Source: a candidate division Kazan bacterium RIFCSPLOWO2_01_FULL_48_13 (GTDB taxonomy: Bacteria; Patescibacteriota; Kazan-3B-28; UBA10110). Taken from it: a stretch of 64,000 nucleotides of DNA. The translations under genes were made by a program, and so were the position numbers. This document shows, piece by piece, positions 1,521 to 59,376 of this stretch. The stretch covers positions 55,158 to 119,157 of the forward strand of contig METE01000001.1 in the NCBI GenBank assembly GCA_001771275.1, in the 5' to 3' direction. The notes under the pieces are model-generated. The model was not told the DNA's origin and made no database searches. It saw nothing but the letters and a program-made list of their open reading frames with translations. The first letter of the stretch is position 1, and every line of letters starts with the position of its first letter.

Positions 1521-1744
1521 AGGTCAGAATTAATCCCGTTAGAGATCACCTAACGGCAACCCCGTTTCGAGCGGTGTAAATATTAACTTTATCAATAATA
1601 TCTCTATCTGTATCTCCTATAGTACTAAGTGTTACGATAGGTTGCCTATCTCTAACGGGATTAAGCGCTGTTTACATTATAGCCGAATGGTCATAACTAA
1701 AAAATCCCTCGCTACGAGAGATTTTTTAGGCTGTCTGCAAGCTA

Positions 1745-2458
1745 TAAGCCGAGTTCTGTCCCATCTCCAGTTCCTGGAACTGGGGATGGGGACGACTATC
1801 TATCTAGGCCTTATGTTGCCATAAGGCTCAAGCGTTGGGATCCCGGTCAGCCCGCCTTAACCCTCGGCGTTAGTAGCTGACATCAGGCCCACCCCAACTT
1901 GCACCGAATAGGGTTTACCGGGACACTTCGCTCACGCGGAGGCCTCGCGGGTAGCATACGGACACAAACTATCAGATTTAAACCTGATTTTCTGCGACAC
2001 TTAGGCTTTACCCCGCAACTTTTCACCTTTCCCCATCCCCAGTTTTGGACACAACCTCAAGAGAATTTTTTATTCTCTTGCGTATCTCCACGATTCCCGA
2101 TCCGTGGGATTTCAGCTTGGTTTCGCGAATCCGAGCATCATTTTGATCTACATGTAGTTCGGCATAAACCAGCCGTCAATCAGCATATTTATGCTTGGTG
2201 GATTGATTATTGCCCCTGCGATGCTCGGACAACCTGCGCTTGAGGTTGTTGGTCTCACCGGTATAATACTTTCCGGTAGATGGGTTGTATAGCATATAAA
2301 CCCAGTGCATAACCTCATTATAGATGTCCAAAACTGGAGATGGGTAGTATTGTCTCTGTGGCACTTTCCCTATCCATCTCCAGTTCCGAAAAACTGGGGA
2401 TGGACGGTTTCTGTTAGAAACTATCCGGGTTAATTTAAGGTGCTCGGACTTTCCTCCC
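1745..2458 (-). ncRNA. rnpB: Probable RNase P RNA (bacterial type A-like) with a large internal insertion
   Basis: Minus strand reads GGGAGGAAAGTCCGAGCACC (P4 5' strand) at 2455-2436 and TAACAGAAACC at about 2410. Further 3' it reads GGGGAAAGGTGAAAAGTTGCGGGGTAAAGCC (P10/11 region) and CGGTAAACCCTATTCGGTGCAAG. GCTTGAGCC...GGCCTAGATAGATAGTCGTCC[hairpin]GGACAGAACTCGGCTTATAG gives P15-P18 and the P4 3' strand. P4 shows covariation (CCGAG/CTCGG versus E. coli CCGGG/CCCGG). The gene is about 700 nt instead of about 380 because of roughly 350 nt inserted between the ACAGAAA element and P10. Confidence 0.5.
2176..2310 (-). pseudogene. GIY-YIG nuclease remnant (about 44 aa, C-terminally truncated) inside the rnpB insertion
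   Basis: The translation MHWVYMLYNPSTGKYYTGETNNLKRRLSEHRR carries the canonical GIY-YIG motif and then stops after about 44 aa. The upstream 50 aa of the 94-aa ORF-track entry is translated rnpB P4 sequence. Confidence 0.45.
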
Positions 2459-2640
2459 ATCCGTCAGCTGACGGACAGGCAGTCGTCCACTTACAAACAG
2501 CTCTGTTAGTATACGCCAAAATCCACGCCAATTCCAGCCCCTTGTCATCCTGGACCGACTGGCCAAGGGCCAAGTTCGGATTCAGGATCCAGGCCTGGAA
2601 TGACAGAATAAAGACGGGGAATATTATTGATTAAATTAGT
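2455..2640. repeat. Mosaic palindromic repeat modules (TCCGTCAGCTGACGGA hairpin; GTCATCCTGG...CAGGATCCAGGCCTGGAATGACA)
   Basis: The same modules recur at about 14.5 kb, 21.9 kb and 19.0 kb. Confidence 0.7.
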
Positions 2641-9879: not shown

Positions 9880-11583
9880 TTAGGGTAAGCGATAGCCTAA
9901 ATTATTATCGTCGGAGTATTGTAATACATACCCTACCCCTTTTAAATACTGCTCATAAATCGTCACGGAATTATTCGTGAGATATTTTTTATGTATTACT
10001 ACCCAATCAGTTTTCCATTTAGTTGGAAAATCATTAGACAATAAGTTAAAACTATTGGCGGAGTTAGCATCCGCTAACGGCAACTGGTCATCACTATAAA
10101 AATCAAAGGTAGAACGCTGGGTGCGCGAAACGCTGCCGATTGCCAGCTTTTTCTGGTGGTAAGTGCCGTAGTAGGCAAACAACGAGATAAATTTGCCTTT
10201 GTCCCAATAGCCCGAATTAATCCCCCACGGGATATCCAGCACCGAAGAAGCTTTGGCATCATTCTTAATTGTTTGATACACCGGCGGAATAGATAGATCG
10301 ATCAGCGGATAAGGAATCGGTAGGAATTCGATCAGGATAAGCACCACCGCTGCCCCGCCCAACCAGCGGCGGCGTTGGGGTAGACGACTAATTGCCATCC
10401 CGATTAGAATGGCCAGACAGAACATCACCATTACCGAGAAGCGCGCCGGCACTCGCCAGCTGCCCCACCCTTCCCACCAGCTGTAAAGCCACAGATATGG
10501 GAGGGAGATGCCGGTAACATGATCTAATCCCTTGAGATGCGGACCAAACGAAAGTATCCCAAACACCGCTCCCAGCACTACCCAGAACCACGGGCTGACA
10601 GAAAAATTTAGTTTAACTCGGCGGCAAATCAGACTGATCAGAAAAATTAAGCCGATCAGCAGGGCGGTCCAGCTCAAGAAGATGGTGTTCTCCACCCCGC
10701 CGGCAAAGGGCCCCGGGATCTTAGCGGCCAAGCTTCCCCACCACGGATGGAGCTGGCTGGGAACAAAATAACGCGCCAAGTCGGCCGAATAAAAATCAAT
10801 TGCCTGAGCGCTTAAAACTTCCGGCGATCCGACTGCGCTGTTTTCTTTGAAGGCCGGGATCAGCCAGATCGACCAGACCGCTATCCAGACCAGGGCCATC
10901 ACCAATCCGCGGCTTAGTAATCTAATGCGATCCGCTACTGAACGAGTAGCGATCAGCTGCCAAATCGCCCAAACAATAATAAAAACAAACAGAAAAATAA
11001 AATTATAGATATCATTTACTGATGCCAGACCGGCCACCAAGCCGGCTGTGATTGGTATCCACCACTGCCGATTCTTAGGCAGTTTTAATACCAGCCAAAC
11101 ACATAACGGGATAAACCATAGGGTGATCAGGTTATAGTGGCCGTAGGCGTGCCTCATAATGTATGGGCTAAACCCAAACAGCACCCCAGCCACCCAGCCA
11201 CCCAAATTTGAACGGGTAATATCTCTAACCACTATGAACATCAGCCAAGCGGTTAACGCGAGCGATAACAGGAAATGGAGATTAAAAGCCATAATGGTAT
11301 TGATCAGCAAAGACAGTCCGGCGATGATCGCCGAATTAACCAATGTCAGCGTATGAAAAACCAAGCTAACGGTCTGCGGATAAAAGATTTGGTCGGTCGA
11401 AAACAGCGAGGCAGAATTAAACCAAACTTGCTTGAGCCACCAAACATCCCACAAAAATAGTGGCGCATCGCCGCCGACTCCCAGAATATGCGAAGGCAAA
11501 TGCAAAATTAGTGGCCAGGTCATCGCCACAACCAAAATTAGATAACCAACAAAGGTCCAAAAAAATAATTTACGCCTATTCAT
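9880..11583 (-). CDS. Polytopic membrane protein, putative GT-C-fold glycosyltransferase
   Basis: 567 aa, more than 10 predicted TM helices plus a C-terminal soluble domain; the N-terminal WPL...GGDAPLFLWDVWW loop resembles PMT/ArnT-like families. Confidence 0.45.
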   Translation of the reverse strand: MNRRKLFFWTFVGYLILVVAMTWPLILHLPSHILGVGGDAPLFLWDVWWLKQVWFNSASLFSTDQIFYPQTVSLVFHTLTLVNSAIIAGLSLLINTIMAFNLHFLLSLALTAWLMFIVVRDITRSNLGGWVAGVLFGFSPYIMRHAYGHYNLITLWFIPLCVWLVLKLPKNRQWWIPITAGLVAGLASVNDIYNFIFLFVFIIVWAIWQLIATRSVADRIRLLSRGLVMALVWIAVWSIWLIPAFKENSAVGSPEVLSAQAIDFYSADLARYFVPSQLHPWWGSLAAKIPGPFAGGVENTIFLSWTALLIGLIFLISLICRRVKLNFSVSPWFWVVLGAVFGILSFGPHLKGLDHVTGISLPYLWLYSWWEGWGSWRVPARFSVMVMFCLAILIGMAISRLPQRRRWLGGAAVVLILIEFLPIPYPLIDLSIPPVYQTIKNDAKASSVLDIPWGINSGYWDKGKFISLFAYYGTYHQKKLAIGSVSRTQRSTFDFYSDDQLPLADANSANSFNLLSNDFPTKWKTDWVVIHKKYLTNNSVTIYEQYLKGVGYVLQYSDDNNLGYRLP

Positions 11584-12350
11584 CGGCTAATTCTATCGTG
11601 GCGCGATACTACTACCGAAGATGAATTATATCTGCCCCGCAGCAGATTTAATTTGACGCGCAGCAGATCGCGCAGCGTTCTTAATGCCTCCCGGCCAGTG
11701 CGGACCTTGCTCTCCATATCGTTGTACCAATCAATCCCTACTTCTTTAAAAGCATAACCTAAATGCCGCGCTATCACTAACACTTCGAAATCAAATCCAA
11801 ATCGATCCAACTTAACATTGGCAAAGATGTTCTTGCCGGCCCGCTGCTCAAATAATTTAAAGCCACATTGAGTATCGTAAATGCCCGGCACAGCCAAAAT
11901 GCGAATCAGCAGGTTGCTGGCTCGGGAGAGCAAAATTCGATGCCGAGACTGAGGAATATGCACATGGGCGCCACGACAGTACCTCGAACCGATTACTACT
12001 GGATATTGAGTAACATAAGGCAGTAATTTATCGACCTGTTCGATCGGAGTGGCATTATCCGCATCAGAAAATAGAATATACTGACCTTTGGCCCCCAATA
12101 CTCCCTGCTTAACCACCGCCCCTTTGCCTTGGTTCACGGAATTAGAAATAAATTTAAGTTCCGGCCAACCTTCGGCGATAATCGATACCACTGCGTCAGT
12201 GGTATCTTTGCTCCCATCGTTGACCACAATAACTTCGTAAACATACGATTGTCTATCCAAAAACTGACGCATCGCCGCTAAGGTTTTACCAATGCGACGC
12301 TCCTCGTTATAAGCCGGCACCACCACTGATAAATAAATACTCTCACCCAT
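11580..12350 (-). CDS. Family 2 glycosyltransferase (polyprenyl-phosphate glycosyltransferase, DPM1/ArnC/GtrB-like)
   Basis: VVVPAYNEERRIGKTL...VVNDGSKDTT...DADN. Start overlaps the stop of the upstream gene. Confidence 0.8.
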   Translation of the reverse strand: MGESIYLSVVVPAYNEERRIGKTLAAMRQFLDRQSYVYEVIVVNDGSKDTTDAVVSIIAEGWPELKFISNSVNQGKGAVVKQGVLGAKGQYILFSDADNATPIEQVDKLLPYVTQYPVVIGSRYCRGAHVHIPQSRHRILLSRASNLLIRILAVPGIYDTQCGFKLFEQRAGKNIFANVKLDRFGFDFEVLVIARHLGYAFKEVGIDWYNDMESKVRTGREALRTLRDLLRVKLNLLRGRYNSSSVVVSRHDRISR

Positions 12351-12364
12351 AATTGTTATATTTT

Positions 12365-12735
12365 ATCTGTCATCTTGAGTTTTACTGCGTCATACCCTCT
12401 TTTTTATTCGTCATTCCCGCCCCCGATCGTAGTCGAGAGTAAACTCCGGCGGCTTCCGGCTCTGAGAGCCTCCAGCTCGGAGAGGAATCCAGACATTAAA
12501 CTAAATAAATTATCATCCTGAGTTTTTGCTGTCATTTTAAGTTTTTTCTTGTCATCCTGAGTTTTTTAGCCACTCCCACATATCCCCTCTCGTCATCCTG
12601 AAAACACTTTACTGCTGTAGGCTATTATATAGATAACTTATTCAGGATCCAGGCCTGGATCCTCGGGTCCCCAGTAGTCGCGGGGCAGGCAAGCCCGAGG
12701 ATGACAAAAAAGGGCGAGAATGACGATGGGGGCGG
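12365..12735. repeat. Mosaic palindromic repeat cluster
   Basis: Multiple GTCATCCTGA / GGATGACA / GAATGACG modules plus the CAGGATCCAGGCCTGGATCCTCGGG module. Confidence 0.7.
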
Positions 12736-12750
12736 AAAGGACAAATTTAA

Positions 12751-13446
12751 TTATTTATAAGCGACAAAAAAGATGTTGGTAAATACCGGATACAGCTTAA
12801 TCGTAGCGAATTTAGTCGTTAACAGCTCTTGGATGTCCTTGGCTACCATCTCATTATGAAACGGTTCTTTAACCTGGTAGTGCCGGCTATTGGAGTGCAA
12901 GGTGATACTTAAAAACCTTAGTTTCCAGAACAGCGACCGCATCGGCACCGAACCGATTAAAACTCCGCCCGGTTTAAGCACCCGGTAGGCCTCAGCCACC
13001 ACCTTCTCTGGATAGATCAGATGTTCCAACACTTCAGCCGCGACTATTAGATCAAAGGTGGCGTCCGGGTAAGGAATGCCCGCCTCCAAATCACACAGTC
13101 GCCCCACCGCCTGTGGCACATATTTTTTCAGCCGCTCTAAGTTGCGCGGGTTAAGATCCAACCCCACCGACCCGACCGGTAAGTGCCTTAAGATCAGACC
13201 GGTCCCACAACCCAGCTCCAATGCCTTGGGGTTAGCAGCCAAACGGGGGCGCAACAGGCGGACTATCCGCCACTCGCGATAGCGATGAAACCAACTTTCG
13301 GGTAGCCACCAGCGATTAACCGTATCAGTCCAATCATAAGTTTCAACCTCTTGATAGTATCGATTGGTCAGCGCTTTATACTCCGGCCAATTTAAATCGG
13401 CCGGCTTGCTTTCGGCGATGCGGCGTTTGTAATCAGGTTCTATCAC
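12751..13446 (-). CDS. Class I SAM-dependent methyltransferase
   Basis: Motif I LELGCGTGLILRHL; post-I VLKPGGVLIGSVP. Confidence 0.7.
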   Translation of the reverse strand: MIEPDYKRRIAESKPADLNWPEYKALTNRYYQEVETYDWTDTVNRWWLPESWFHRYREWRIVRLLRPRLAANPKALELGCGTGLILRHLPVGSVGLDLNPRNLERLKKYVPQAVGRLCDLEAGIPYPDATFDLIVAAEVLEHLIYPEKVVAEAYRVLKPGGVLIGSVPMRSLFWKLRFLSITLHSNSRHYQVKEPFHNEMVAKDIQELLTTKFATIKLYPVFTNIFFVAYK

Positions 13447-13846
13447 TCTGGCGAAAGATAATAAATTTATAAGTTAAGTAGTTGCAGACGGTAAAGATAA
13501 TCGCCGAGACTATTTTGGCTAAATTGTACTGCCACCAGTACGGCCAGCCGGGAAACTGGCCTATTAGCATCTGGGTGCCAAAATGAACCAACACATCATA
13601 AATAACTATCCAGATCAGGTTGACGGTAACAAACAGTGGCAACTGCCGAAGATGATTAGGTCGCTTATCGCCAAAGGTCCAGTATTTATGCCAGATGTAA
13701 CCATTAGTAATGGCCAGCGCTGCCGAAAGAGTGTTGGCTGGAATTAACTGCCAATGAAACACCTGCACCAACAAATTAAGCATCCCGATATCGATCGCAG
13801 CGTTGCTGGTTCCGACTATCGAATATCTAATTAACTGTTTGATCAT
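13433..13846 (-). CDS. GtrA-family membrane protein
   Basis: 137 aa, 4 TM; N-terminal IRYSIVGTSNAAIDIGMLNLL is typical of GtrA. Confidence 0.65.
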   Translation of the reverse strand: MIKQLIRYSIVGTSNAAIDIGMLNLLVQVFHWQLIPANTLSAALAITNGYIWHKYWTFGDKRPNHLRQLPLFVTVNLIWIVIYDVLVHFGTQMLIGQFPGWPYWWQYNLAKIVSAIIFTVCNYLTYKFIIFRQSDRT

Positions 13847-14766
13847 ATCTTTTTAGCCAAAATAAATACGCTACTGCCAAATGGCAGGCTGATATATCTA
13901 ATCAGCCACGCTTCTATCCAGCCTAAACCGATCAATAACCGGCTGATGGGATGGGGCGCAGCATTATACCCGGCTCCCCGGCCTAAACTTTTGGCCAGCA
14001 GCCGCTGGGCTACGAAGATCGGGAAGGTAAACATAAATACATACGAAGAAAATATCGGTTTAAATCCAGCTTGGGAAAGTTTAGCTGCTAACTTGCTTAA
14101 GGTATAGCGGCGCTGATGCAACAAGGCTTTATCATGCGGGCCATACAGCCACTGATACGCCGGTACGGAGATCGCCACACACCCACCAATGGTTAGAACA
14201 CGATGCCACTCTTTAAGCGCCGCTTCATCATCTAACAGATGTTCCAATACATCGAAAGCGGTGATCAGATCGATCGATTCATCCGGCCGAGGCAATTGCA
14301 GAGCATCGCCCTGTTCCGCTTCCCCGTGCTGCTTGGCCGAAACCAGCGCCACCTCGCTTTGATCAATGCCAGTAACCTTTCCCCACCGCCGCAAGAACTC
14401 TAAATTAAAACCCCCGCCGCACCCCACATCCAATATCTCCATTCCTTTTGTTGAAGCGTCATTGCGAGTAATCTCCCCCCATTTTGTCATTCCAGACTCG
14501 ATCTGGAATCCAGGCCTGGATCCTGAATCCGAACTTGGCCCTTGGCCAGTCGGTCCAGGATGACACATCAAGTCGTTATTCTGGGTAGGCCGTTCTCCAT
14601 CGTCATTCTGGGGAGTCCGTCGGCTGACGGACGACTCCAGAATCTTAGGATTATCAGATTCTAATAGCCACTTGTCTAATATCGAACGCCAGACCAGCCT
14701 CCGGCAGATATGCCACCAGTAAAACTGCTCCTGTTCGCCCATTTCGGCTACATCGCTTTCTTGCAT
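13843..14766 (-). CDS. Class I SAM-dependent methyltransferase (N-terminal region contains translated repeat element)
   Basis: ILDVGCGGGFNLEFL, ITAFDVLEHL. Residues ...MCHPGPTGQGPSSDSGSRPGFQIESGMTK... are encoded by the palindromic repeat at 14441-14700, so the true start may be a downstream Met such as MEILDVG. Confidence 0.55.
   Translation of the reverse strand: MQESDVAEMGEQEQFYWWHICRRLVWRSILDKWLLESDNPKILESSVSRRTPQNDDGERPTQNNDLMCHPGPTGQGPSSDSGSRPGFQIESGMTKWGEITRNDASTKGMEILDVGCGGGFNLEFLRRWGKVTGIDQSEVALVSAKQHGEAEQGDALQLPRPDESIDLITAFDVLEHLLDDEAALKEWHRVLTIGGCVAISVPAYQWLYGPHDKALLHQRRYTLSKLAAKLSQAGFKPIFSSYVFMFTFPIFVAQRLLAKSLGRGAGYNAAPHPISRLLIGLGWIEAWLIRYISLPFGSSVFILAKKI
14441..14700. repeat. 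Palindromic repeat modules lying in-frame in the 5' part of the methyltransferase ORF
   Basis: GTCATTCCAGACTCGATCTGGAATCCAGGCCTGGATCCTGAATCCGAACTTGGCCCTTGGCCAGTCGGTCCAGGATGACA followed by GTCATTCTGGGGAGTCCGTCGGCTGACGGACGACTCCAGAATC. Confidence 0.75.
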
Positions 14767-14929: not shown

Positions 14930-17356
14930 TTAGGCGATGGTGAAGGTGAGGGTGCCAGTGTAGTTTTCTACCTCTGCTCCAGCAGGGATGTCTATTTGAA
15001 TGGTTGGCCGGACATTAGTTTCATCCCCAACTGACCCGCTACTTCGCGTCCCGACAGTCTGGGGGGTGTCCAATGCGTAAGTATTAGCGGCTGGCTCTGT
15101 CACATTAGAAGTTGTGCCAGACCAAATGGTTTTTGTATCACCACCACCCCCGACCGTACCATCGGTTCGGAGTTTCACATTAGCGGCGGAGATAACATAA
15201 GTAGTCGGAGCTCCAGTAATTGCAGAAGATGATACAGTCAAACTCCACCCCGCACCAGCATCAGTTGCGGTAACCAATTCATCAGCCGCGAAGGTGGTTT
15301 CTACCGTAAATCCTCTGTTGCCATCATTCAATACTATATCAGCTGGCGCAGTTAAACCCAGTTGCGGCCCCTGAATTTCCACTGCCGCAGTTTTGGTATA
15401 GGCTGTAAACGCAGTAGTAGAAGCGTACGCCCTAAGATAATAGGTGTTAACTGTTGCGCTATATATAGACCACTCGTATTCGGTAAAAGACCACGCCGTC
15501 AACGCAACCAAGCTGGTAGCTATATCGGAGGTTTCCACCACCCTACCTACAGCAAAATCCCATCCATTGGCGGTCTCATCAGTTAATTGCCTGGTAGTGG
15601 CTTCGTTGTGAGTAACCAGTGCTGAGGTTACTATTTTTACATCTGTAGTGGTATTAGTTACTTGTGTATAAGTACCGCCCTCAGAGGTACTATAATACAG
15701 CAGGGGCGAGAAGGTGCCAGTTTCTCCCCCATCATTCCTAAACTGAATCCGAACGCGATAATTAGTGCTGACATCGTAAAGCACGGTAGTATCATCCTCA
15801 GTAGTGGCGCCAGCTTTATCGGTCCAAGCAATATGGGTTTCGTCGTCATCATCGGTATCAAATTGAAAATGAGTCTGTTGATATGACACCGCTTGATACT
15901 GCAGTGGCGTGGGGGTGGAGGCAGAGTCCATCGGCGGGATGATAGCGCTATCGTAAGTGGTGGTTGAGGGGGCAGTGGCCGAACCAAACCGAAAAATAAC
16001 ATTACTGGCAGTGATGGCAGCTAAACTAACCAATTCCACATCCAGACATACTCGCTCACCAGCAGTGATCGTGGCCGCAGAGCCCGCCAACACAGCTTCC
16101 AATTGATTATCGGTAGTGGTGCTATTGAACTCGTTACCATTAGCGCGGGCATAAATAGTATCTCCAATAGTATCATCCGCGTCCCAAGTGTATATCATAG
16201 TTCGCGGAGCGGCGTTGTTGCCCAAAGTTGATTCATTCCCGTGAAGGTGAAATATCCAGTTGCCAGCCGGGATGGTTTGGGCGGCCAATGGTGGAGAACA
16301 CCAGATATTCATTTGATAGTAATAGGGATTTCCGGTAGTTTCTACGGCTTGGGTGTTAGATTCGGCGCCCGCTCCGGCCACCGTGCTCATTCGTCGGCTA
16401 TCCATAGTACTCGATCGAAAACTGTCGGCCCCCTGATGAGCATTGGGAATGGGAGCACGATCCGTGCTGGTCGGTTGCAGATAGATCGGATCAAAGGTAT
16501 CTACCGTGGTCGTGTTAACTGTAATATAACTGGCCGCATTACCAGCGTTAGTGATAGATCGGTCCGTGATAGCCCCATTACCCCCCCAGCACAGCGTGAC
16601 GGTGCGGGCGTTAGAGGTTCGGGTAGTGGCATCTACCCAAAACTCCACCGCCAGATAATCGTAGTTATTACTGCTATAACTACTGCCACCGACAGCATTA
16701 GTTACCGGCCAAACATATCCGGTTAACGAAGTGGTCAGCTCGTTAGTGGGGTGTGAGGTTGGCCCGGCTAAGACTTTAGCACTATTATTATCATTAGAAT
16801 CGTAAACATAAACATAAGCCCGCAGATAACCGTTGAGGGCACCGTGGCTCTCGCTGGCCGACATCCCAACCGTAAAACTGGTATCACTGGTAAAGGTAGT
16901 GTTGTTACCCAATGGCATAATAAAGGTTCTAAACCATGCCATATCCACATCTGGAGTGTTAGTAAAAGCGGCGCTGGTTACCCGGTAAGCATTTATCGAT
17001 AACGAGGTGGCGTTAGGCTGGATTGGTCCCGCGATCGGAATCATCCCCAACGCAGTGGCCTGACCAGACACCACCATGCCAGAAGCATCGCTACTATTTT
17101 CCACGGTCGGACCAGCCACCCCAAAATAGTTGTTAGCAGTGCGGGTGGGTGTAACGACACTATCGGCTTTAAAATAGAAAGTGCTTTGCGTGGCGGCCTG
17201 CGCTTCGGCTTTCGGAATCGAGTTTGGGATAAAGCTAAAATCGATAAAATCCCAGTGGAGATAGTTAATTAATATCGATAAAGCTAACAGCCAGCTAATG
17301 CGGGCCAAAATTAAGCGACGGCGTGAACTGATTAAACTATCTCCCCTATGGTGCAT
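14930..17356 (-). CDS. Large secreted surface protein with WxL-like C-terminal domain (csc 'C'-like)
   Basis: N-terminal signal/anchor; Thr/Ser/Asn-rich beta-type composition; C-terminal GAGWSLTV... and terminal ...NYTGTLTFTIA shared with the 46502 paralog (TVGTRSSGSVGDETNVRPTIQIDIP vs TVGTRSSGTSGDSTTTRPSIQVVIP). Confidence 0.5.
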   Translation of the reverse strand: MHHRGDSLISSRRRLILARISWLLALSILINYLHWDFIDFSFIPNSIPKAEAQAATQSTFYFKADSVVTPTRTANNYFGVAGPTVENSSDASGMVVSGQATALGMIPIAGPIQPNATSLSINAYRVTSAAFTNTPDVDMAWFRTFIMPLGNNTTFTSDTSFTVGMSASESHGALNGYLRAYVYVYDSNDNNSAKVLAGPTSHPTNELTTSLTGYVWPVTNAVGGSSYSSNNYDYLAVEFWVDATTRTSNARTVTLCWGGNGAITDRSITNAGNAASYITVNTTTVDTFDPIYLQPTSTDRAPIPNAHQGADSFRSSTMDSRRMSTVAGAGAESNTQAVETTGNPYYYQMNIWCSPPLAAQTIPAGNWIFHLHGNESTLGNNAAPRTMIYTWDADDTIGDTIYARANGNEFNSTTTDNQLEAVLAGSAATITAGERVCLDVELVSLAAITASNVIFRFGSATAPSTTTYDSAIIPPMDSASTPTPLQYQAVSYQQTHFQFDTDDDDETHIAWTDKAGATTEDDTTVLYDVSTNYRVRIQFRNDGGETGTFSPLLYYSTSEGGTYTQVTNTTTDVKIVTSALVTHNEATTRQLTDETANGWDFAVGRVVETSDIATSLVALTAWSFTEYEWSIYSATVNTYYLRAYASTTAFTAYTKTAAVEIQGPQLGLTAPADIVLNDGNRGFTVETTFAADELVTATDAGAGWSLTVSSSAITGAPTTYVISAANVKLRTDGTVGGGGDTKTIWSGTTSNVTEPAANTYALDTPQTVGTRSSGSVGDETNVRPTIQIDIPAGAEVENYTGTLTFTIA

Positions 17357-17418: not shown

Positions 17419-18963
17419 TTGCTCGGATCATATTGCTATACTAAAACTATGGTGCGAATTGGGCAGATTGGTCAGCGAATAAAAAAATGGTGGAAAATTA
17501 CTGATCCAGTTAATTGGTTGCTTTTGGTGGTGGCGGTGGGGTTCTGTGCCTATCCGTTAACTGACCCTGACTTCGGTTGGCAGTTACGCTCAGGTCTGGA
17601 TTTGCTAAAAACTCATCAATTACCCCAGTTTGACCCCTATTCTCACACTCTGCCCAACTGGCATTGGGTTAATTTAGAGTGGTTGAGTGAAGGAACGATA
17701 GCATTTATTTACCAGCATTTAGGGGCAGCATCGCTAATCTTTGCTTTTGCGCTAATGGCCGTCGCTATGTTAATAATTGCGGCATCGTGGTCAACAGGAG
17801 TTAGCCTAAAAGCCAAATTAGCAGTTGCTGTCTTGGCAGTTCTGGCCAATGTGGGGCGTTGGGGTGTACGGCTACAACTTATTACCCAACTGGGATTAGC
17901 AATCGTGCTGTGGTTATTTTCTCGCTATCGAATCGGCGCTATTAAGCATCTGTGGTGGTATATTCCGCTATTTTGGCTGTGGGCTAATCTCCATGGCGGG
18001 TTTTTTAGCGGGTTAGCAGTCTTAGGGTTGCTCTGGGTAGTAGAAGGGATTAAATGGCTCAATCGGCCTCGCCATCGTCACACTGTTTCATCAAGGATAA
18101 CCGAGCCCACCCTGCAACTGCCACAGCTAAGGCATTTGATGGTCGTTGGCTTATTGTCGGGCGCGGCGACCTTGATTAATCCATATGGCTGGCGGATATA
18201 TGAGGATATTTACCGGCTATTCTCTACCTCTTTCGTGTTGAAAGCCATCGCGGAGTGGAAACCGTTCTCGATCAGCGAATCCGGCAACTATTTTCTGTGG
18301 CTTTACTTTTGCTTGCTGATCATCGCTATGATATTTACCTACCGCAAAGTTGAACCTACTCGCTGGGTAGTGACCATATTTTTCTTTATTATGATGATTA
18401 CTGCCAACCGCAACTTGGCGTTATTCCTACTGATCAGCTCTGGATTTTTTGCCGAGGCGATCAACGGGCCGATGAAGTGGCTGACCTACCGTCTAATCCG
18501 ACTGCGGTGGTTGGCTGTCGCCATTACTGTTGGTGGATTCTATTGGGTAACCCCCAGCATACTGCGGTTTACTGAGACGGCGGATGATATTAAAACCATT
18601 TCCCAGATCGGACGCTACCCTCTATCTGCCATCGAGTGGGCTAAGGCCCACCCAGACCAGATTGGAGACCGGCTGTTCAATATGTACGGCCAGGGCGGGT
18701 TTTTGCTGTGGCAACTGCCAGAGAAAAAGATCTTTATTGATGGGCGGATGTCGTATTGGCAGATAGATAATCGGTGGGTTTTTCGAGATAGCATTGCAAT
18801 TAATGGAGCCTACCCCGGCGCGGTGCAGATGATGGAGGAAAAATATCAGGTCGACTGGGTGTTAGTTGACCCGCGAATAAAGTTGGCACTGGAACTGAGC
18901 CAACGACCCGACTGGCAGTTGGTCTATCAAGATTCGTTGGCGGTTATTTATACCAAAAAATAA
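17419..18963 (+). CDS. Polytopic membrane protein, 'DPDFGWQLRSG' family (putative GT-C-like), paralog of 21029 and 43514
   Basis: 514 aa; about 10 TM plus a C-terminal domain with FNMYGQGGFLLWQLPEKKIFIDGRM, conserved in all three paralogs. Confidence 0.55.
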   Translation: MLGSYCYTKTMVRIGQIGQRIKKWWKITDPVNWLLLVVAVGFCAYPLTDPDFGWQLRSGLDLLKTHQLPQFDPYSHTLPNWHWVNLEWLSEGTIAFIYQHLGAASLIFAFALMAVAMLIIAASWSTGVSLKAKLAVAVLAVLANVGRWGVRLQLITQLGLAIVLWLFSRYRIGAIKHLWWYIPLFWLWANLHGGFFSGLAVLGLLWVVEGIKWLNRPRHRHTVSSRITEPTLQLPQLRHLMVVGLLSGAATLINPYGWRIYEDIYRLFSTSFVLKAIAEWKPFSISESGNYFLWLYFCLLIIAMIFTYRKVEPTRWVVTIFFFIMMITANRNLALFLLISSGFFAEAINGPMKWLTYRLIRLRWLAVAITVGGFYWVTPSILRFTETADDIKTISQIGRYPLSAIEWAKAHPDQIGDRLFNMYGQGGFLLWQLPEKKIFIDGRMSYWQIDNRWVFRDSIAINGAYPGAVQMMEEKYQVDWVLVDPRIKLALELSQRPDWQLVYQDSLAVIYTKK

Positions 18964-19329: not shown

Positions 19330-20982
19330 TTACTTACTGCGTTTCTTTTTGTTGGATTTTGGCTTAGCTACCGATTTGGTTGATGGAGCAGCCTTTTTAG
19401 TCACCCGTTTAGGTTTAACGGTTGTCTTATGCGCAATTGGCACTAATATCTCTTGGCCAGCCCGCAAGCGATATGGCGGCCGAAGATTATTTAACCGAAC
19501 AATTTCTTGAATGCTAATACCAGCAAACTCGGAAATATCGTAGATGGTGTCACCCTTTTCGGCCACCAACGCCTCCATTGCCACCGTCGGCACTCCCCCT
19601 TTCGTCATTCTGGGGAGTGAAGCGACTCCAGAATCTTGAGATTCTGGATGCGGTCCGATGAGTCGGACCTTACCAGAATGACGAGCGGTGGAGACAACAC
19701 CCATGTTACGGCGGCGGAAGCGAATCTTACCCAACAACGCACCAACAAACTTCAAATCGGTTAGCCATACCTTGCGCTGTTCGGCCTTATAGTAAGCGTT
19801 CCAGTCATCACCCATTGTCAGACGCTCACCCCTACTCATCTGGCCTTGGGGAATTAATAACACATCATCCACATTTAATTCGTACGGCCAGCGAAGCAGA
19901 TTAAACTTAGCTAACTTTTTAGGATGCACGCCATAAAGCTGGGCTACCGACATTAGCGTTTCGCCCTTTTTAACTTTATGTTTTTTGGTGCGGGTATTTA
20001 ACCTGCTTTGGATTAACAACCACAACCAGAGATTACGAATTAACAGCAACAGAATAATCCCGCCGATAAACCATAGAATCTTAATCCACTGAATTATCCA
20101 AAACACATATCGCACATCGATGTACTCATCCTTAACATATTCACCTTTAAAATCCTTTTCACCGTAGTGCAGCCGGAAATCCGCCACAAATCGGCCAAAG
20201 GCTGGCGGGTTTTTCTGCCAGGGCAGCTGAGCGGTAATTTCAGATCCCCTCAGCAACATTCCGATCTCTGCACCACTCTGCGACCCTACCTTGCCAAACA
20301 ATCCTCGCAAAGTTACATCGGCAATAGCATTAAGTTGCACATTGCCGTTATTCTTTAACCGAAGAAAGAAATAGAGTAGGCCGTTGCCAATAGAGTGCCT
20401 GATCTGCTTAACCTCCAACCGCCTTTGGATCTCACCCGGTACTGTTAAATACATCCGCGCCGCTATCCGAGTTACGACTGTCAACTGGCTGCTATTCTTT
20501 TTCTTAGCTCCCAAGGTGCTCGCCTCAGCCGGTTTTTCCAAAACGACTATCCCACCAGGGTGACTACCAACATCAGCATTGTCCGGTACTGTTACTGTAA
20601 AATTCAGAATTTGATTAGATTTAGGTGGTAGAGTCACTTCTGTTTTCTCCAACTCTACCCAAGTGCCAATGTCCTTGTTATCGGCCATGCTACCGATTAA
20701 GGTATAGCCGCCATTTTGAGACACTGCGCCATCTAAGGCCGCTACTATTAAATTAACGGACTTGTTGCCCCGATTTATTACATTGACCCGATCTTTAATT
20801 ACGGTCTTGGCTTCAGCCTCATAAACAAACCAGGACCGATTGGCCGGATAATCTTTGGTGGCTGCCGGCATTACGCCGATACCTCCAGTTTCAACCGCAT
20901 AAGCCATTGGTTGGCCGGACAACAAAAATACCGCTACCAATAGCAGCCAAACAACTACAAAAAGGATTTTTGTTTTTTTCAT
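19330..20982 (-). CDS. DUF916/DUF3324-like (CscA-like) surface protein with TM segment, two LysM domains and a Lys-rich tail; an in-frame repeat insertion lies between the LysM domains
   Basis: Signal peptide; NRSWFVYEAEAKTV...DIGTWVELEKTEVTLPPKSNQILNFTVTVPDNADVGSHPGGIVVLE (DUF916-like); TM FWIIQWIKILWFIGGIILLLLI; LysM 1 HKVKKGETLMSVAQLYGV...LLIPQ; LysM 2 VAEKGDTIYDISEFAGISIQEIVRLNNL...ILVP. Residues RLIGPHPESQDSGVASLPRMTKGG are encoded by the repeat at 19603-19685. Confidence 0.6.
   Translation of the reverse strand: MKKTKILFVVVWLLLVAVFLLSGQPMAYAVETGGIGVMPAATKDYPANRSWFVYEAEAKTVIKDRVNVINRGNKSVNLIVAALDGAVSQNGGYTLIGSMADNKDIGTWVELEKTEVTLPPKSNQILNFTVTVPDNADVGSHPGGIVVLEKPAEASTLGAKKKNSSQLTVVTRIAARMYLTVPGEIQRRLEVKQIRHSIGNGLLYFFLRLKNNGNVQLNAIADVTLRGLFGKVGSQSGAEIGMLLRGSEITAQLPWQKNPPAFGRFVADFRLHYGEKDFKGEYVKDEYIDVRYVFWIIQWIKILWFIGGIILLLLIRNLWLWLLIQSRLNTRTKKHKVKKGETLMSVAQLYGVHPKKLAKFNLLRWPYELNVDDVLLIPQGQMSRGERLTMGDDWNAYYKAEQRKVWLTDLKFVGALLGKIRFRRRNMGVVSTARHSGKVRLIGPHPESQDSGVASLPRMTKGGVPTVAMEALVAEKGDTIYDISEFAGISIQEIVRLNNLRPPYRLRAGQEILVPIAHKTTVKPKRVTKKAAPSTKSVAKPKSNKKKRSK
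19603..19685. repeat. Palindromic repeat element inserted in-frame inside the CDS 19330..20982
   Basis: CGTCATTCTGGGGAGTGAAGCGACTCCAGAATCTTGAGATTCTGGATGCGGTCCGATGAGTCGGACCTTACCAGAATGACGAG. Confidence 0.75.
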
Positions 20983-21028: not shown

Positions 21029-22642
21029 TTAGTTAAGCTTAGTTGTGAGAACTCGACCAAATAGCCAGCAATTATTGTCTTGATATAGTGCTTCCCAGCC
21101 ATCGGAGTTACGCAGAAAATACTGCGCAAATTGACTTTGTTTTTTAATCAAGATTAAATCGGCCTTATATTTATTTAAGATGGCTGTGGTCGGCTCATCC
21201 TCTACCGATAACGAGGTGTACTCCTTGAATAGATTTTGAGTGGGAGTCTGCCAGATTGCCATCCGCCCATCAATAAATACCGGTTTTTCGGGCAGCTGCC
21301 AGATTAGATAACCACCCCAGCCATACTCGTTAAACAAGTTACCAGGCAGGTGATGCTCTTTTATATACTGCACTGCGCCCACTGGATAGCCGGCGGCCCT
21401 GAACAATGATTCTTGATTGGTCGATAGGGGCACCACGCTGAGAGATTGAACATAACCGTAGTATCCCACCCCAATCAATAAGGCAAATCCTATCCAGACC
21501 GATCGAGTATAGTAGCTAATGCCGGCTGGTAGCAATACGGCAACGGCATCGGCTAAGAGTGGTAAAGTAACTAATGGGAATAACGGCATATTTCGCCAGC
21601 TGCTGATAGAAATTACAAAAAATACTATCCCAATAAATATTTTAGTGCCATCCATTTTACGCCAACTCATCAGCACAAATATCGCTAACAAGATTGCATA
21701 GATCAGTAGATTAAAGCCATTAACGCTGCCTAAATCCACCGGTAGCCATTCCGAGATATTAGATTTAACTAAATCGTTAAAGACCGTTCTAACAAATTCC
21801 TCATACACTCGCCAAGTGTATGGATTAACCAGAGTCACCGCACCCGACAACAGACCCACCCAGACTAACTGCCACAACTCTTTAGCCGATAGAAATCCAG
21901 CTCCTTTTGTCATTCCAGACTCGATCTGGAATCCAGGCCTGGATCCTGAATCCGAACTTGGCCCTTGGCCAGTCGATCCAGGATGACAGTTTTGTAATTT
22001 AGGATGACGCCCAGACCGCTTCCATATATACTTAGCCAACTCAAACACTCCAAACGCGCCCATTAAAATTAGCCCAGCCATAAATCCACCATGCAGATTT
22101 ACCCAGATCAGCATCAAGGGGATCAGCCAAAATATTAATTTGTTTTCTGGCTTTTCTCGCCATCGAAATAGAATCCACAAGATAGCCGCCAACCCTAATA
22201 ATGTAATCAGCTGAGGCCGGACTCCCACGATTGGGTAAGCTACTAATATGGCAATCAGTGTGGTCAACACGGTCGCTGGCCAACTAACCCGGGATACCCG
22301 AGAGGCCAATAGATAGGCGGCGACGGCGATCAAGGCAAATAAAACTACTAAAAATAATAGGCCCCAATAATGTGACCCAAGATATAGTAGCACATCAGTT
22401 AGCCACTCGTGCGATATCCACGGATAGCCCGGCATAGTATACGAGTAGCTGTCGCCCCGCGGGACTCCAAATTTTAAGATATCTTCCCCGTTTCTAAGAT
22501 GCCAGCCCAAATCCGGATCACGAGGTGAACGCAAGGTTAATAAAAAAGCCAATGTTAAAGTGAGTGCTATAAACGATCGATCACGCAGAATCGCCACTTT
22601 TGACGAGAATCTATTCATTGCCTGTATTAATAAATTTAACAT
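21029..22642 (-). CDS. Polytopic membrane protein, 'DPDLGWHLRNG' family (putative GT-C-like), with in-frame repeat insertion
   Basis: 537 aa; paralog of 17419 and 43514 (conserved FNEYGWGGYLIWQLPEKPVFIDGRM). The segment ...LQNCHPGSTGQGPSSDSGSRPGFQIESGMTKGAGF... is absent from the paralogs and is encoded by the repeat at 21908-22010. Confidence 0.55.
   Translation of the reverse strand: MLNLLIQAMNRFSSKVAILRDRSFIALTLTLAFLLTLRSPRDPDLGWHLRNGEDILKFGVPRGDSYSYTMPGYPWISHEWLTDVLLYLGSHYWGLLFLVVLFALIAVAAYLLASRVSRVSWPATVLTTLIAILVAYPIVGVRPQLITLLGLAAILWILFRWREKPENKLIFWLIPLMLIWVNLHGGFMAGLILMGAFGVFELAKYIWKRSGRHPKLQNCHPGSTGQGPSSDSGSRPGFQIESGMTKGAGFLSAKELWQLVWVGLLSGAVTLVNPYTWRVYEEFVRTVFNDLVKSNISEWLPVDLGSVNGFNLLIYAILLAIFVLMSWRKMDGTKIFIGIVFFVISISSWRNMPLFPLVTLPLLADAVAVLLPAGISYYTRSVWIGFALLIGVGYYGYVQSLSVVPLSTNQESLFRAAGYPVGAVQYIKEHHLPGNLFNEYGWGGYLIWQLPEKPVFIDGRMAIWQTPTQNLFKEYTSLSVEDEPTTAILNKYKADLILIKKQSQFAQYFLRNSDGWEALYQDNNCWLFGRVLTTKLN
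21908..22010. repeat. Palindromic repeat element inserted in-frame inside the CDS 21029..22642
   Basis: GTCATTCCAGACTCGATCTGGAATCCAGGCCTGGATCCTGAATCCGAACTTGGCCCTTGGCCAGTCGATCCAGGATGACAG...AGGATGACG; same module as 14468-14570. Confidence 0.8.
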
Positions 22643-24281
22643 GATCAGCCTGGGCTAAAAATTCTCTAACGGAAGGTAGAGAGAGGTCATAGTAGGTAAT
22701 ATGACCGATCCGCTCAGGCAATGTAATCGCTGATAATTTATTAGCAACTGGATCATTCCAGTTTTCCCTCACCACCACCATCCAATTATCTCCAGGCGCT
22801 AATTCCAGATCATCCACTAACTCATATCTTTGGCCATAAGCTCTATACCAGTTTTTATGCTCGGGATTAGCTATTCCCCACGCTATCCGCTGGTAGGTAA
22901 CATGGTTCGGAAAATAGTATTGAAAATGCTCTAAGCCCCAATGTATAAATGGTTGATCAATGGCTATAACCGTATTTTGAGGATTAAATTCTTGGTTAAT
23001 AGTCGGTATAAGATTATTCCACAGCCGATCTATCGTATAGATGGTGTAATGAGTTGGTACATTGGGCTCAATAATCTGGCGCCCAGACCTTAAATAAATC
23101 CAGGTGTTGCCGGCGATCAATAATGATATGACACTAATCAGATAGGCAGTTGGCCAAAATCGTTGTGCCGATGGTAGATGAGCTAATAATTGAACCGTTA
23201 CATCAACTAAGATGGTAATTGTTCTGGCAATCAAGATCGTTAGCCCAGGGATGAGTACTAACAAATAACCCGGAAGAGTATAGACACCGAAGATATAGAA
23301 CAAACTGGCCGGCAAAACTAATACTAACCAAAAGTATAAATTGAATAAATTAATCTTGTTGGTGTTAGTTCGCGGGACAGCCAGTAGCGCTAAGAATAGC
23401 ACCAAAGCCGCGCTGGAAAAATTGAAATTGATCAATAAGCCCTTGAATATCATATTAAACTGATCCCACGCAGCGCTTAAGCCATGGTTAAGCGACACGA
23501 ATTTGTCCATCCCGGGCGCTAACAACAGCGCACTAACTGCTGCCCAAAATTTTAACCATCCGCCACTAAGAGCTGCCGCTGGCCAGACCCAACTTAAAGT
23601 AATTAGCCCAATAACCCCCACATTCAAAAGCGCCACTCGCCAACTGCGTTGTCGCCAAATCATCCATAGCCACAACGGCGCCATAAACAATACCGAAGTG
23701 GGCCTAAACCCACCACTAATGGCTAATACCACACTCGCCCACAACGCTAATCGTGGGTTAGCCTTTTTGGTCGATAGAATCTGATACGCTAAATAACCAA
23801 ACCAAGACATAAACAACGCATCGGATAAATAGTTGAGTGCTACTTGGCCGTAGAACCAAACTACTGGCGCTGATATAAACATCGACACCGCCACCCACGC
23901 CGTTGGCTGGCCATATATTTTTTTGGCTAAATAATAGAGGGTATACAGCGCCCCAATTGAGAAGATGATGCTAACAATAATGAGAGCAGTATTAGCATCT
24001 CCCATTAACCAATAGATTGGTTTAGTAAACAGAATGTACAACGCGTAGCCCATTGGATGAGGCCGGTGGATTGACACATCGTATTTATCTAAGGCTAAAG
24101 CGTATTTGACCGCATCGACCGAATAGAGAAACTGGCTATGACCAACCCAACGGGTAACAATTATGGTAATAGCTAAAATCCCTAACCATAACTGCTCAGG
24201 CTGATTTGCAAACCATTTGTATATAAGTTTTATTGACAGCCGCTGGTTGGCCAATCGTTTTTTACTTAAACCTAACTTCAT
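22611..24281 (-). CDS. Polytopic membrane glycosyltransferase-like protein (GT-C, ArnT/PMT-like)
   Basis: 556 aa, about 12 TM, N-terminal loop with YSVDAVKYALAL; start overlaps the downstream gene by 32 nt. Confidence 0.45.
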   Translation of the reverse strand: MKLGLSKKRLANQRLSIKLIYKWFANQPEQLWLGILAITIIVTRWVGHSQFLYSVDAVKYALALDKYDVSIHRPHPMGYALYILFTKPIYWLMGDANTALIIVSIIFSIGALYTLYYLAKKIYGQPTAWVAVSMFISAPVVWFYGQVALNYLSDALFMSWFGYLAYQILSTKKANPRLALWASVVLAISGGFRPTSVLFMAPLWLWMIWRQRSWRVALLNVGVIGLITLSWVWPAAALSGGWLKFWAAVSALLLAPGMDKFVSLNHGLSAAWDQFNMIFKGLLINFNFSSAALVLFLALLAVPRTNTNKINLFNLYFWLVLVLPASLFYIFGVYTLPGYLLVLIPGLTILIARTITILVDVTVQLLAHLPSAQRFWPTAYLISVISLLIAGNTWIYLRSGRQIIEPNVPTHYTIYTIDRLWNNLIPTINQEFNPQNTVIAIDQPFIHWGLEHFQYYFPNHVTYQRIAWGIANPEHKNWYRAYGQRYELVDDLELAPGDNWMVVVRENWNDPVANKLSAITLPERIGHITYYDLSLPSVREFLAQADHVKFINTGNE

Positions 24282-24493: not shown

Positions 24494-25081
24494 TTAAGTA
24501 AGGGTAAAGGTAGCTATGCCAGTATAAACACCGGCTGCGTCGGTGCCGGTAACATTCAATAGAAACTCTGAGTTATCATAACCAAACGCGCCACTCGCCT
24601 GAGTAGAGCCATTAAGAATGGTGCTGCCGCCGTCGTTAAGCGGGCCGTCTCCCGACATCAGGGCAACTCGGTTGGTATCTCCCGCTGAGATATTGCGGAT
24701 AGTACCATTATTAGTGATCTTTAGCCGACTGGCCGAGATGATATTGGTACCAGCCTGCATATTATTAGCACTAACGGTCACATTCCATTCAGTGCCGCTA
24801 CCGCGCAAATCAGTAATTTCGACTCCATCTGTTTCTGTGTCACCGACATGAGCCGAGTTACTCTCGCCATAGTTCATCATCGGGAAATTGACGCCTTCTG
24901 GCGCGTTAACAATAGTAAAAGCCCCAGCGTTAACATTAAATGAGACATTAGTTAAATCAGTGTCTGCCCACACCACTCCCAAAGTGTTGCCGATCATCAG
25001 AGCGGCTACCAAAAGGGCAAGACCGCCAAATAGTTGCTGTCTGACCTGATTTTCCGCCTTTTTGAGAATAGTGTTATCCAT
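24494..25081 (-). CDS. Small secreted WxL-like surface protein (csc 'B'-like)
   Basis: N-terminal TM/signal; GTEWNVTVS (WxL-like); extreme C-terminus ...YTGIATFTLT matches the C-terminal motif of 42790, 46502 and 14930. Confidence 0.45.
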   Translation of the reverse strand: MDNTILKKAENQVRQQLFGGLALLVAALMIGNTLGVVWADTDLTNVSFNVNAGAFTIVNAPEGVNFPMMNYGESNSAHVGDTETDGVEITDLRGSGTEWNVTVSANNMQAGTNIISASRLKITNNGTIRNISAGDTNRVALMSGDGPLNDGGSTILNGSTQASGAFGYDNSEFLLNVTGTDAAGVYTGIATFTLT

Positions 25082-36813: not shown

Positions 36814-36822
36814 GATAATTAT

Positions 36823-37437: not shown

Positions 37438-37441
37438 GCCT

Positions 37442-39159: not shown

Positions 39160-39194
39160 GCGATATGCTCCGAGTGTAATAAAAGAGCGTCTTT

Positions 39195-39950: not shown

Positions 39951-39956
39951 CCTAGC

Positions 39957-41909: not shown

Positions 41910-41913
41910 AGCG

Positions 41914-52367: not shown

Positions 52368-52373
52368 CAAAAT

Positions 52374-52484
52374 TTGGCAACGACCTACTTTCACAACCCG
52401 AAAGTTACTATCATCGGCGCTGAAGGGCTTAACTGCTGTGTTCGAGATGGGAACAGGTGTGGCCCCTTCGCGAGAGTCACCAAG
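52374..52484 (-). rRNA. rrf: 5S rRNA
   Basis: The minus strand aligns to bacterial 5S (ACTATCATCGGCGCTGAAGGGCTTAACTGCTGTGTTCGAGATGGGAACAGGTG as the reverse complement of the conserved core). Terminal helix I is TTGGTGAC/GTCGTTGCCAA. Confidence 0.75.
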
Positions 52485-56928: not shown

Positions 56929-56946
56929 ACCCGACAAGGAATTTCG

Positions 56947-57682: not shown

Positions 57683-57691
57683 GCAGCTTTC

Positions 57692-57722
<31 letters not shown>

Positions 57723-58728: not shown

Positions 58729-58759
<31 letters not shown>

Positions 58760-59336: not shown

Positions 59337-59376
<40 letters not shown>

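Follow-up and report, generated by a model that had tools for sequence, protein, structure and literature searches.

A probable divergent WxL domain at the C-terminus of four secreted proteins from two csc/WxL-type cassettes of a Kazan bacterium

The sequence analysed here is a stretch of 64,000 nucleotides (nt), in the following called the window, from the metagenome bin of candidate division Kazan bacterium RIFCSPLOWO2_01_FULL_48_13, a member of the Patescibacteria or candidate phyla radiation (CPR); its G+C content is 47%, and the four proteins treated below are identical to entries recorded for this bin. The window encodes four proteins with hydrophobic N-terminal segments, presumably cleaved as signal peptides, which share a short motif at the extreme C-terminus: protein 1 (14930..17356, minus strand, 808 amino acids (aa)), protein 2 (24494..25081, minus strand, 195 aa), protein 3 (42790..43416, plus strand, 208 aa) and protein 4 (46502..48016, plus strand, 504 aa). 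Our analysis indicates that all four very probably carry a divergent WxL domain at the extreme C-terminus, that the shared motif is a structural terminal strand of this domain, and that the genes lie in two cassettes of the csc/WxL type. WxL proteins (Pfam PF13731) include CscB and CscC of Lactiplantibacillus plantarum, Swp and Lwp of Enterococcus faecium, and ElrA of E. faecalis. Following their nomenclature, we refer to proteins 2 (type 2) and 3 (type 3) as small WxL proteins and to proteins 1 (A) and 4 (B) as large WxL-type proteins. A first-pass annotation of the sequence had read the motif as the last beta-strand of a WxL-like cell-wall-binding domain, and all testable parts of that interpretation are upheld. 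The system is thus a lineage variant of the known WxL system and not a new sorting signal.

The shared ending and its relation to the WxL family

The four open reading frames (ORFs) named in the first-pass annotation exist with the C-termini given there, each ending directly at its stop codon. Protein 1 ends in ...NYTGTLTFTIA (YTGTLTFTIA at 14933..14962, minus strand), protein 2 in ...VYTGIATFTLT (YTGIATFTLT at 24497..24526, minus strand), protein 3 in ...DYTTSFRLTIA (YTTSFRLTIA at 43384..43413, plus strand) and protein 4 in ...DYVGAMRFTVA (YVGAMRFTVA at 47984..48013, plus strand). The internal motif that had been described alongside the ending was also recovered in each protein, in the form G-x(1,2)-W-x-[LIV]-T. 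This motif 1 reads GAGWSLTV in protein 1 (W704; 15233..15277, minus strand), GTEWNVTV in protein 2 (W99; 24773..24817, minus strand), GNGWSVTG in protein 3 (W100; 43057..43101, plus strand) and GNGWSITV in protein 4 (W404; 47681..47725, plus strand). From motif 1 to the terminal hydrophobic residue, the distance is 93 and 105 residues in the two small proteins, and 101 and 97 residues in the large proteins 1 and 4, respectively.

We quantified how specific this ending is. Among the 288 ORFs that measure 60 aa or more from stop to stop in the six frames of the window, the pattern [FWLYM]-T-[ILV]-[AT]-stop occurred in proteins 1-4 only, and so did the longer pattern Y-x-[GT]-x3-[FWL]-T-[ILV]-[AT]-stop. 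Frequent occurrence at unrelated C-termini, which the first-pass annotation had listed as a finding that would speak against its reading, was therefore not seen in the remaining 284. Beyond the window, we collected 173 ORFs of at least 100 aa from 10 related, non-redundant Patescibacteria loci; the C-terminal pattern was present in 17 of them, and all 17 are small or large cassette proteins. Because a rough estimate from composition puts the terminal pattern at about 1e-6 per ORF, the four matches are not due to chance and reflect common descent.

The relationship to WxL proteins, proposed at first from the motif, is borne out by Pfam matches close to or above threshold, by profile-profile comparison and by database names. 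Protein 2 matched the Pfam WxL profile with an E-value of 5.9e-5 and 23.6 bits, below the gathering score of 25 bits, while its orthologues (46-70% identical) passed this cut-off with 25.2-28.3 bits. Four of these orthologues aligned to profile positions from about 41 to 211 of 214 and reached the end of the model with their last residue; because the last residue meets the end of the WxL profile, the terminal motif corresponds to WxL motif 2. Several protein 2 orthologues are named 'WxL domain-containing protein [Patescibacteria group bacterium]' by NCBI, and UniRef lists proteins 2 and 3 as 'WxL domain-containing protein'. The WxL identity of both small proteins is therefore already in the databases and is not new.

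For the more distant comparisons, we used as reference a set of 33 proteins whose tail is four residues long and has Pro as its last residue (mostly xxGP); two of them are Actinomycetota WxL proteins that are both NCBI-named and Pfam-positive. Against this set, hhalign gave a probability of 99.4% (E-value 4.6e-21) for the type-2 small family and 98.4% for the type-3 small family, the latter also matching the type-2 family with 98.1%. The C-terminal domain of the large type matched the reference set end to end with 96.5% and an E-value of 7.4e-10. By contrast, control alignments of unrelated proteins reached at most 1.2%, with E-values of at least 0.04. The positive alignments covered 136-185 columns; each began at an N-terminal strand, included D-x-x-G-x-x-G-W-x-V-T and extended as far as the last residue.

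An exhaustive profile search returned 2273 representative clusters at an E-value of at most 1e-3, with proteins of 140-1130 aa. The domain was almost always at the extreme C-terminus: in 150 of the 150 matches listed, it ended within a few residues of the protein end. The Pfam WxL domain was found in 90 of the 144 best matches. Their N-terminal parts contained HtaA, Big, cadherin-like, TIG, malectin and peptidase domains, which is what one expects of a modular surface anchor. A word-indexed homologue search with the large-type domain found two proteins only.

The first-pass annotation had further stated that the Trp of the canonical terminal motif is consistently replaced by Phe. This holds for proteins 1, 2 and 4; protein 3 has Leu at this position, and relatives vary. 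In the best 144 representative clusters, the position was occupied by Leu in 44, Phe in 30, Ile in 18, Val in 18, Tyr in 11, Met in 5 and Trp in 4. In an alignment of 58 sequences from Patescibacteria and Actinomycetota, the same column contained Leu (36), Phe (12), Tyr (7) and Val (2), while the motif-1 Trp, one Gly and the motif-2 Tyr were invariant in 58 of 58 and the motif-2 Thr was present in 56. Phe is invariant at the 'Trp' position only inside the large-type subfamily. The proper description of the ending is hence Y-x-[GAST]-x-h-x-h-T-[LIV]-x, where h is hydrophobic, an amphipathic beta-strand; 'F for W' is too narrow, and the Trp is a particularity of the classical members, which are mainly Firmicute. 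The residues beyond the strand also differ: 78 of the best 144 clusters end one residue past the motif, like the window proteins, and 32 have a four-residue tail, mostly ending in Pro (xxGP, xxAP or xxTP).

Altogether, the proteins resemble known WxL proteins in having a signal peptide, a C-terminal domain of about 140-170 aa with a predicted all-beta fold, a motif 2 of the form Y-x-x-x-h-x-h-T-[LIV] on the last strand, and a small form, which is the domain alone, encoded together with a large form in which a passenger precedes the domain. The published context of WxL motif 1 comprises Asp at W-8, Arg at W-6 and hydrophobic residues at W-10 and W+4 (PMC9772566). Protein 2 has all of these relative to its motif-1 Trp, fitting D-x-R-G-x-x-x-W-x-[LV]-x-V; in protein 3, the Asp is kept and Ser replaces the Arg. 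In contrast to known WxL proteins, the motif-2 Trp is replaced by F, L or Y, the stop codon is reached one residue past the motif without an xxGP-type tail, and the large-type domain is missed by Pfam. The small proteins additionally have a conserved, lineage-specific AExxxRQ sequence in the n-region of the signal peptide. The host differs as well: it is a Patescibacterium recovered from an environmental metagenome and not a Firmicute of the gut.

Two cassettes with a WxLIP-like partner

The four genes lie in two cassettes, A and B, which are paralogous. Cassette A is on the minus strand except for one gene and reads, in order, small WxL gene (24494..25081), a PMT_2 glycosyltransferase gene, a membrane-protein gene, a WxLIP/LysM gene, a copy of the membrane-protein gene on the plus strand, and the large WxL gene (14930..17356). 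Cassette B, on the plus strand, consists of the small WxL gene, a membrane-protein gene, a WxLIP/LysM gene, the large WxL gene and a gene for a 385-aa protein. Both cassettes thus contain one WxLIP-like and two WxL genes, the composition by which a Csc cluster is defined (PMC10599100), and these lie within four genes of each other, as in Firmicute clusters with a WxLIP (DUF916-DUF3324-transmembrane segment; CscA, DufA).

The WxLIP (DUF916)-like protein of cassette A (19330..20982, minus strand, 550 aa) comprises a signal peptide, a PGBD, a second region without Pfam match, one transmembrane segment and two LysM domains in a basic tail. It scored 33.5 bits for WxLIP_PGBD (cut-off 27.3 bits) and 72 bits for LysM, with hydrophobic segments at aa 1-19 and 292-310. 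Its counterpart in cassette B (45054..46460, plus strand, 468 aa), with a signal peptide, PGBD, transmembrane segment and two LysM domains, scored 30.8 and 65 bits, respectively. PGBD and LysM were detected in 11 of 11 members of this family. The similarity to the Firmicute WxLIP therefore extends to a PGBD above the cut-off, a signal peptide and a single C-proximal transmembrane helix. Unlike in the Firmicute protein, two or three LysM domains follow the single transmembrane segment in a very basic, K/R-rich tail; this arrangement is seen in all 11 homologues, including those at L001 12237-13829 and L003 7824-9494 in related loci. Because the N-terminal signal would be cleaved and because of the positive-inside rule, the LysM domains would be cytoplasmic, which is odd for peptidoglycan binders.

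Three members of a polytopic membrane-protein family, which we call DPDFGW after the conserved loop DPDFGW[HQ]LR of the three paralogues, accompany these genes. Paralogue 1 (17419..18963, plus strand, 514 aa) has at least seven hydrophobic segments and is 42% identical to paralogue 3 (43514..45079, plus strand, 521 aa) and 33% identical to paralogue 2 (21029..22642, minus strand, 537 aa), which contains an in-frame insertion of a repeat element at aa 210-246. Paralogue 2 is syntenic in eight other loci, and orthologues of paralogue 3 occupy the same position in L001 and L011. No match to Pfam, NCBIfam or PDB was found for these proteins. We considered a GT-C identity and do not call them glycosyltransferases, since hhalign against the PMT_2 family gave 0.1% and Pfam and NCBIfam returned nothing. 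The GT-C glycosyltransferase of cassette A itself (22611..24281, minus strand, 556 aa) matched PMT_2 with 26.5 bits (cut-off 26.1) and Glyco_transf_22 with 25.8 bits (cut-off 23.8), and its gene stands directly downstream of the small WxL gene in nine other loci. A polytopic membrane protein without database match and, in cassette A, a PMT_2 GT-C enzyme set these cassettes apart from the described Firmicute clusters, as does the fact that no LPxTG protein (CscD) was recognised in the cassettes.

The cassette proved to be conserved in eight loci from a genome collection, searched with a 13-sequence alignment, and in two metagenome loci. The order small WxL, PMT_2, membrane protein, WxLIP/LysM, large protein recurred in eight loci: in full in L003, L005, L006, L008, L009, L010 and L011, and up to the contig end in L012. 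All seven complete loci encode a large protein that ends in this manner. Of the cassette A order, only the small WxL and PMT_2 pair is present in L001 and L007, and cassette B recurs in L001 and L011. The L007 sequence with this pair (JBDRBQ010000046.1) is labelled Candidatus Omnitrophota, which may reflect mis-binning or lateral transfer; L010 and L011 carry the label Saccharibacteria. Membership is uncertain for the secreted or anchored protein of 385 aa that closes cassette B (48065..49222, plus strand): close Kazan relatives alone have its gene beside that of the large WxL protein, L001 lacks it at this position, and the protein has no family match in Pfam, NCBIfam or PHROGs.

Structural role of the terminal strand and competing explanations

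The first-pass annotation had suggested that the motif forms a terminal beta-strand. In an AlphaFold2 model of protein 2, built with the 58-sequence alignment, the mean predicted local distance difference test score (pLDDT) was 85.9 and the mature domain was all-beta. Strand E190-194, with a pLDDT of about 94, lies in the terminal motif, in agreement with that suggestion, and the motif-1 strand E99-105 has a pLDDT above 90. In published AlphaFold analyses of Firmicute proteins, the two WxL motifs are on adjacent antiparallel strands. For Firmicutes, AlphaFold2 also predicts that a strand of the WxLIP completes the WxL sandwich (PMC10599100). By analogy, the two motif strands of the Patescibacteria proteins would pair side by side. 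In our reading, the terminal decapeptide Y-x-[GTA]-x-h-x-h-T-[ILV]-x is WxL motif 2, the last strand of an Ig-like beta-sandwich, and the internal G-x-W-x-[LIV]-T is WxL motif 1. From homology to the Firmicute domain, the inward-facing side chains of the two adjacent strands, W/L from motif 1 and h/[ILV] from motif 2, may build a buried hydrophobic platform. With such a role the motif would be structural and not a cleaved or recognised sorting signal.

We propose that, once exported by Sec, the small and large proteins would use their WxL domains to bind, non-covalently, both the cell wall and the WxLIP-like protein anchored in the membrane. The variable N-terminal passengers of the large proteins would thereby be displayed on the surface of the Kazan cell.

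Several observations weigh against the assignment to the WxL family. The second Trp from which the family takes its name is missing in all four proteins: the Trp of Trp-x-Leu is replaced by F, F, L and F in proteins 1-4, x is Thr, and the Leu position has I, L, I and V. Proteins 1, 3 and 4 have no Pfam WxL match, and even at an E-value of 0.1 the Pfam WxL profile misses all 10 homologues examined for the C-terminal domain of the large type. The motif-1 loop of the large type is three residues shorter and lacks the canonical D/R pair, with Asp at W-5, while W-x-[LI]-T-V is kept. In Firmicutes, the two motifs are about 106 residues apart in the small subtype and about 68 in the large subtype (PMC9772566); the spacing of 97-101 in our large type is near the former and unlike the latter. 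On the side of the partner, the HBD (DUF3324) of WxLIP was detected in 0 of 11 family members at an E-value of 0.1. Finally, the full-length AlphaFold2 model of protein 4, from 11 sequences, was too poor to use (mean pLDDT 48), no solved WxL structure was found for comparison, and a PDB search with the small-protein profile returned nothing relevant.

A different function is conceivable for the small proteins: through donor-strand complementation, they might build up a fibre or a surface array. The groove that the two motif strands line in one subunit, or in the domain of the large protein, would be occupied by the N-terminal segment of a neighbouring subunit, and the terminal motif would line an acceptor groove instead of being simply a core strand. 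We regard this as very unlikely. The N-terminal segment T-N-[VIL]-x-[QF]-N-V-x-A-G is indeed one of the best conserved stretches in the small proteins (3.4-4.0 bits per column) with a pLDDT of only about 55, and the large-type domain does not have it; in published AlphaFold2 complexes, moreover, a WxLIP strand completes the WxL sandwich (PMC10599100). The best structural matches to the protein 2 model were donor-strand pilins and fibres with an Ig-like sandwich topology (CsuA/B, FimG, PapA; Caf1; archaeal cannulae; TasA-like proteins), weak matches with scores in the generic Ig-like range. On the other hand, no fibre has been reported for WxL proteins, and none of the papers searched links WxL to donor strands, except for one review that names each once. 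There is also no sequence relationship to the donor-strand pilins and no chaperone or usher, so that at most a working principle is shared.

We give still less credence to the explanation that the terminal motif is a sorting or processing signal for a dedicated enzyme comparable to a sortase, an exosortase, a rhombosortase or a C-terminal secretion system, possibly the cassette membrane protein, which would attach the protein covalently to a wall or lipid acceptor. In its favour, the motif is exactly C-terminal in every family member, its Thr is nearly invariant (56 of 58), and the genes are in strict synteny with those of a GT-C enzyme and of a polytopic membrane family that is uncharacterised. 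Nevertheless, nothing follows the motif, neither a hydrophobic helix nor a basic tail, just as the first-pass annotation had argued when it set the motif apart from sortase-type and PEP-CTERM-type signals. The motif also matches the end of the globular WxL profile and is a well-ordered predicted strand. Moreover, in related WxL proteins the strand continues into a tail of 3-7 residues, e.g. xxGP; because these tails vary, the extreme terminus is not conserved. What the motif shares with the LPXTG/sortase, PEP-CTERM/exosortase and GlyGly-CTERM/rhombosortase signals is only the C-terminal position on secreted proteins; it has no signature motif of these systems and no trailing transmembrane helix or basic tail, and it is part of a folded domain.

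That the shared ending is merely compositional or convergent in Thr/Gly-rich beta-proteins without a common domain has next to no probability. It could draw on the abundance of T, S, N and G in all four proteins and on the low identity of 22-26% when a small domain is compared with a large one, but the profile-profile matches (96-99% over 136-185 columns) against the low-scoring controls effectively refute it. The invariant W, G and Y columns, the absence of the motif from the other 284 ORFs and the conserved synteny also count against it. The explanation we prefer thus remains a WxL domain closed by a structural terminal strand.

WxL clusters have been described in gut commensals of Lactobacillales and Bacillales, and their function has been framed as adhesion to an animal host (PMC9772566, PMC10599100). 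None of the papers searched relevantly connects WxL with CPR or Patescibacteria. Our data indicate a conserved and elaborated WxL cassette in groundwater-type Patescibacteria and a second Trp that is dispensable in most of the distant relatives; therefore, the WxL family looks like a general surface-anchoring module of monoderms that is not specific to animal hosts. They also offer a domain assignment for large 'hypothetical' CPR surface proteins that current Pfam models miss, and the LysM-tailed WxLIP, the DPDFGW membrane protein and the PMT_2 enzyme are candidates for studying how episymbionts build their surface. More speculatively, and in our view improbable as a whole, the cassettes might encode a Patescibacteria-specific display apparatus in which interchangeable passengers, one labelled phage tail collar-like and the others unrelated and 300-1100 aa long, are held on the wall by strand complementation of the WxL domains with the LysM-bearing WxLIP, the conserved N-terminal strand of the small WxL protein serves as donor, the hydrophobic-Thr-hydrophobic terminal strand lines the acceptor groove, and PMT_2 and DPDFGW proteins glycosylate or otherwise modify the Thr/Ser-rich proteins; such an apparatus may serve attachment of the episymbiont to its host.

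Passengers, neighbouring genes and repeats

The two large proteins share the C-terminal domain and differ in the remainder. Protein 1 consists of a hydrophobic N-terminal signal, an uncharacterised Thr/Ser-rich passenger of about 650 aa and the WxL-like domain at aa 666-808 (14933..15361, minus strand), delimited by alignments and hhalign; the protein has no Pfam, NCBIfam or PHROGs match and is uncharacterised in UniRef. Protein 4 consists of a signal, three repeats with GG..HxH...PxY motifs and the WxL-like domain (47597..48013, plus strand). Its residues 1-365 (46502..47596) contain three tandem repeats of about 110 aa, each made up of G-G-(T/S)-G-G-S...H-x-H, a second H-x-H, P-P-Y/H or P-A-Y, and then a hydrophobic strand. 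UniRef labels it 'Phage tail collar domain-containing protein'; this phage-tail identity was not confirmed, as PHROGs gave no match and Pfam only Gp10_C with an E-value of 0.033. The C-terminal 143 aa of protein 1 are 48% identical to those of protein 4, and the large C-terminal domain is 48-79% identical among proteins whose unrelated N-terminal regions span 170-950 aa. Because the C-terminal domains are similar and the N-terminal regions unrelated, the domain appears to be a shared anchor with exchangeable passengers.

The two small proteins are assigned on different grounds, protein 2 by its sub-threshold Pfam WxL match, UniRef name and AlphaFold2 model, and protein 3 by hhalign and UniRef name, with no Pfam match. 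Their signal peptides (aa 1-35 in protein 2 and 1-40 in protein 3) have an unusually long and near-invariant n-region. In type 2, the AExxxRQ-type sequence of this region is KAENQVRQQLFGG, and in type 3 it is QAExxRQxLVLG; neither the WxL proteins of Actinomycetota nor the large proteins have it.

Genes for sugar metabolism and transfer surround both cassettes. Sugar-nucleotide and methyltransferase genes, followed by PMT_2 and GT2 genes, precede cassette B; this region (33714..42615, plus strand) encodes a PRK-family kinase fusion, a class II aldolase, two nucleotidyltransferases, a TylF-like O-methyltransferase, a second PMT_2 GT-C glycosyltransferase (39957..41909, plus strand, 650 aa; PMT_2 39.6 bits) and a GT2 glycosyltransferase (41914..42615, plus strand, 233 aa; Pfam Glycos_transf_2 67 bits). 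The latter is possibly a polyprenyl-phosphate-sugar synthase that feeds the GT-C enzymes. A second GT2 gene and two methyltransferase genes flank cassette A (11580..14766). This gene content suggests a locus for a surface glycan or for protein glycosylation.

Several repeats touch the cassettes. An 84-nt family of short palindromic repeats occurs at 14482-14565, 19036-19119 and 21905-21988, and inverted at 2543-2599. It is in frame within a methyltransferase gene (13843..14766) and within the gene of DPDFGW paralogue 2, in both of which it reads ...PTGQGPSSDSGSRPGFQIESGMTK...; the peptide PTGQGPSSDSGSRPGFQIESGMTK also appears in the WxLIP/LysM linkers of other genomes (L003, L005). A direct repeat of 38-41 nt brackets cassette B at 42635-42675 and 49284-49324, and its downstream copy forms the first codons of a ComM/Mg-chelatase-like ORF (49278..50804). 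This suggests that the cassette of about 6.6 kb was inserted at the 5' end of comM, the bracketing repeat looking like an att-like target duplication.

Elsewhere, the window is densely populated by families of short palindromic repeats resembling miniature inverted-repeat transposable elements or repetitive extragenic palindromes, at 7967-8171, 9179-9838, 25600-26377, 29839-30131, 50855-50964 and many other intergenic sites. The 23S ribosomal RNA (rRNA) match (56029..59988, minus strand) spans 3960 nt against a model of 2925 positions, with insertions of about 1 kb, and contains the ORF 57010..57591 and parts of others. Insertion sequences and introns are known from the rRNA genes of CPR bacteria, and the 23S insertions fit this pattern. 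The 5S rRNA gene (52372..52484, minus strand) is separated by about 3.5 kb from the 3' end of the 23S gene, and this interval includes, at 53488-55949, three similar ORFs (53657..54136, 54495..55091 and 55347..55949) and a 45-nt repeat recurring every 850 nt or so. Finally, the class A RNase P RNA match (1729..2498, minus strand) is 770 nt long against a model of 367 positions, which implies a large insertion.

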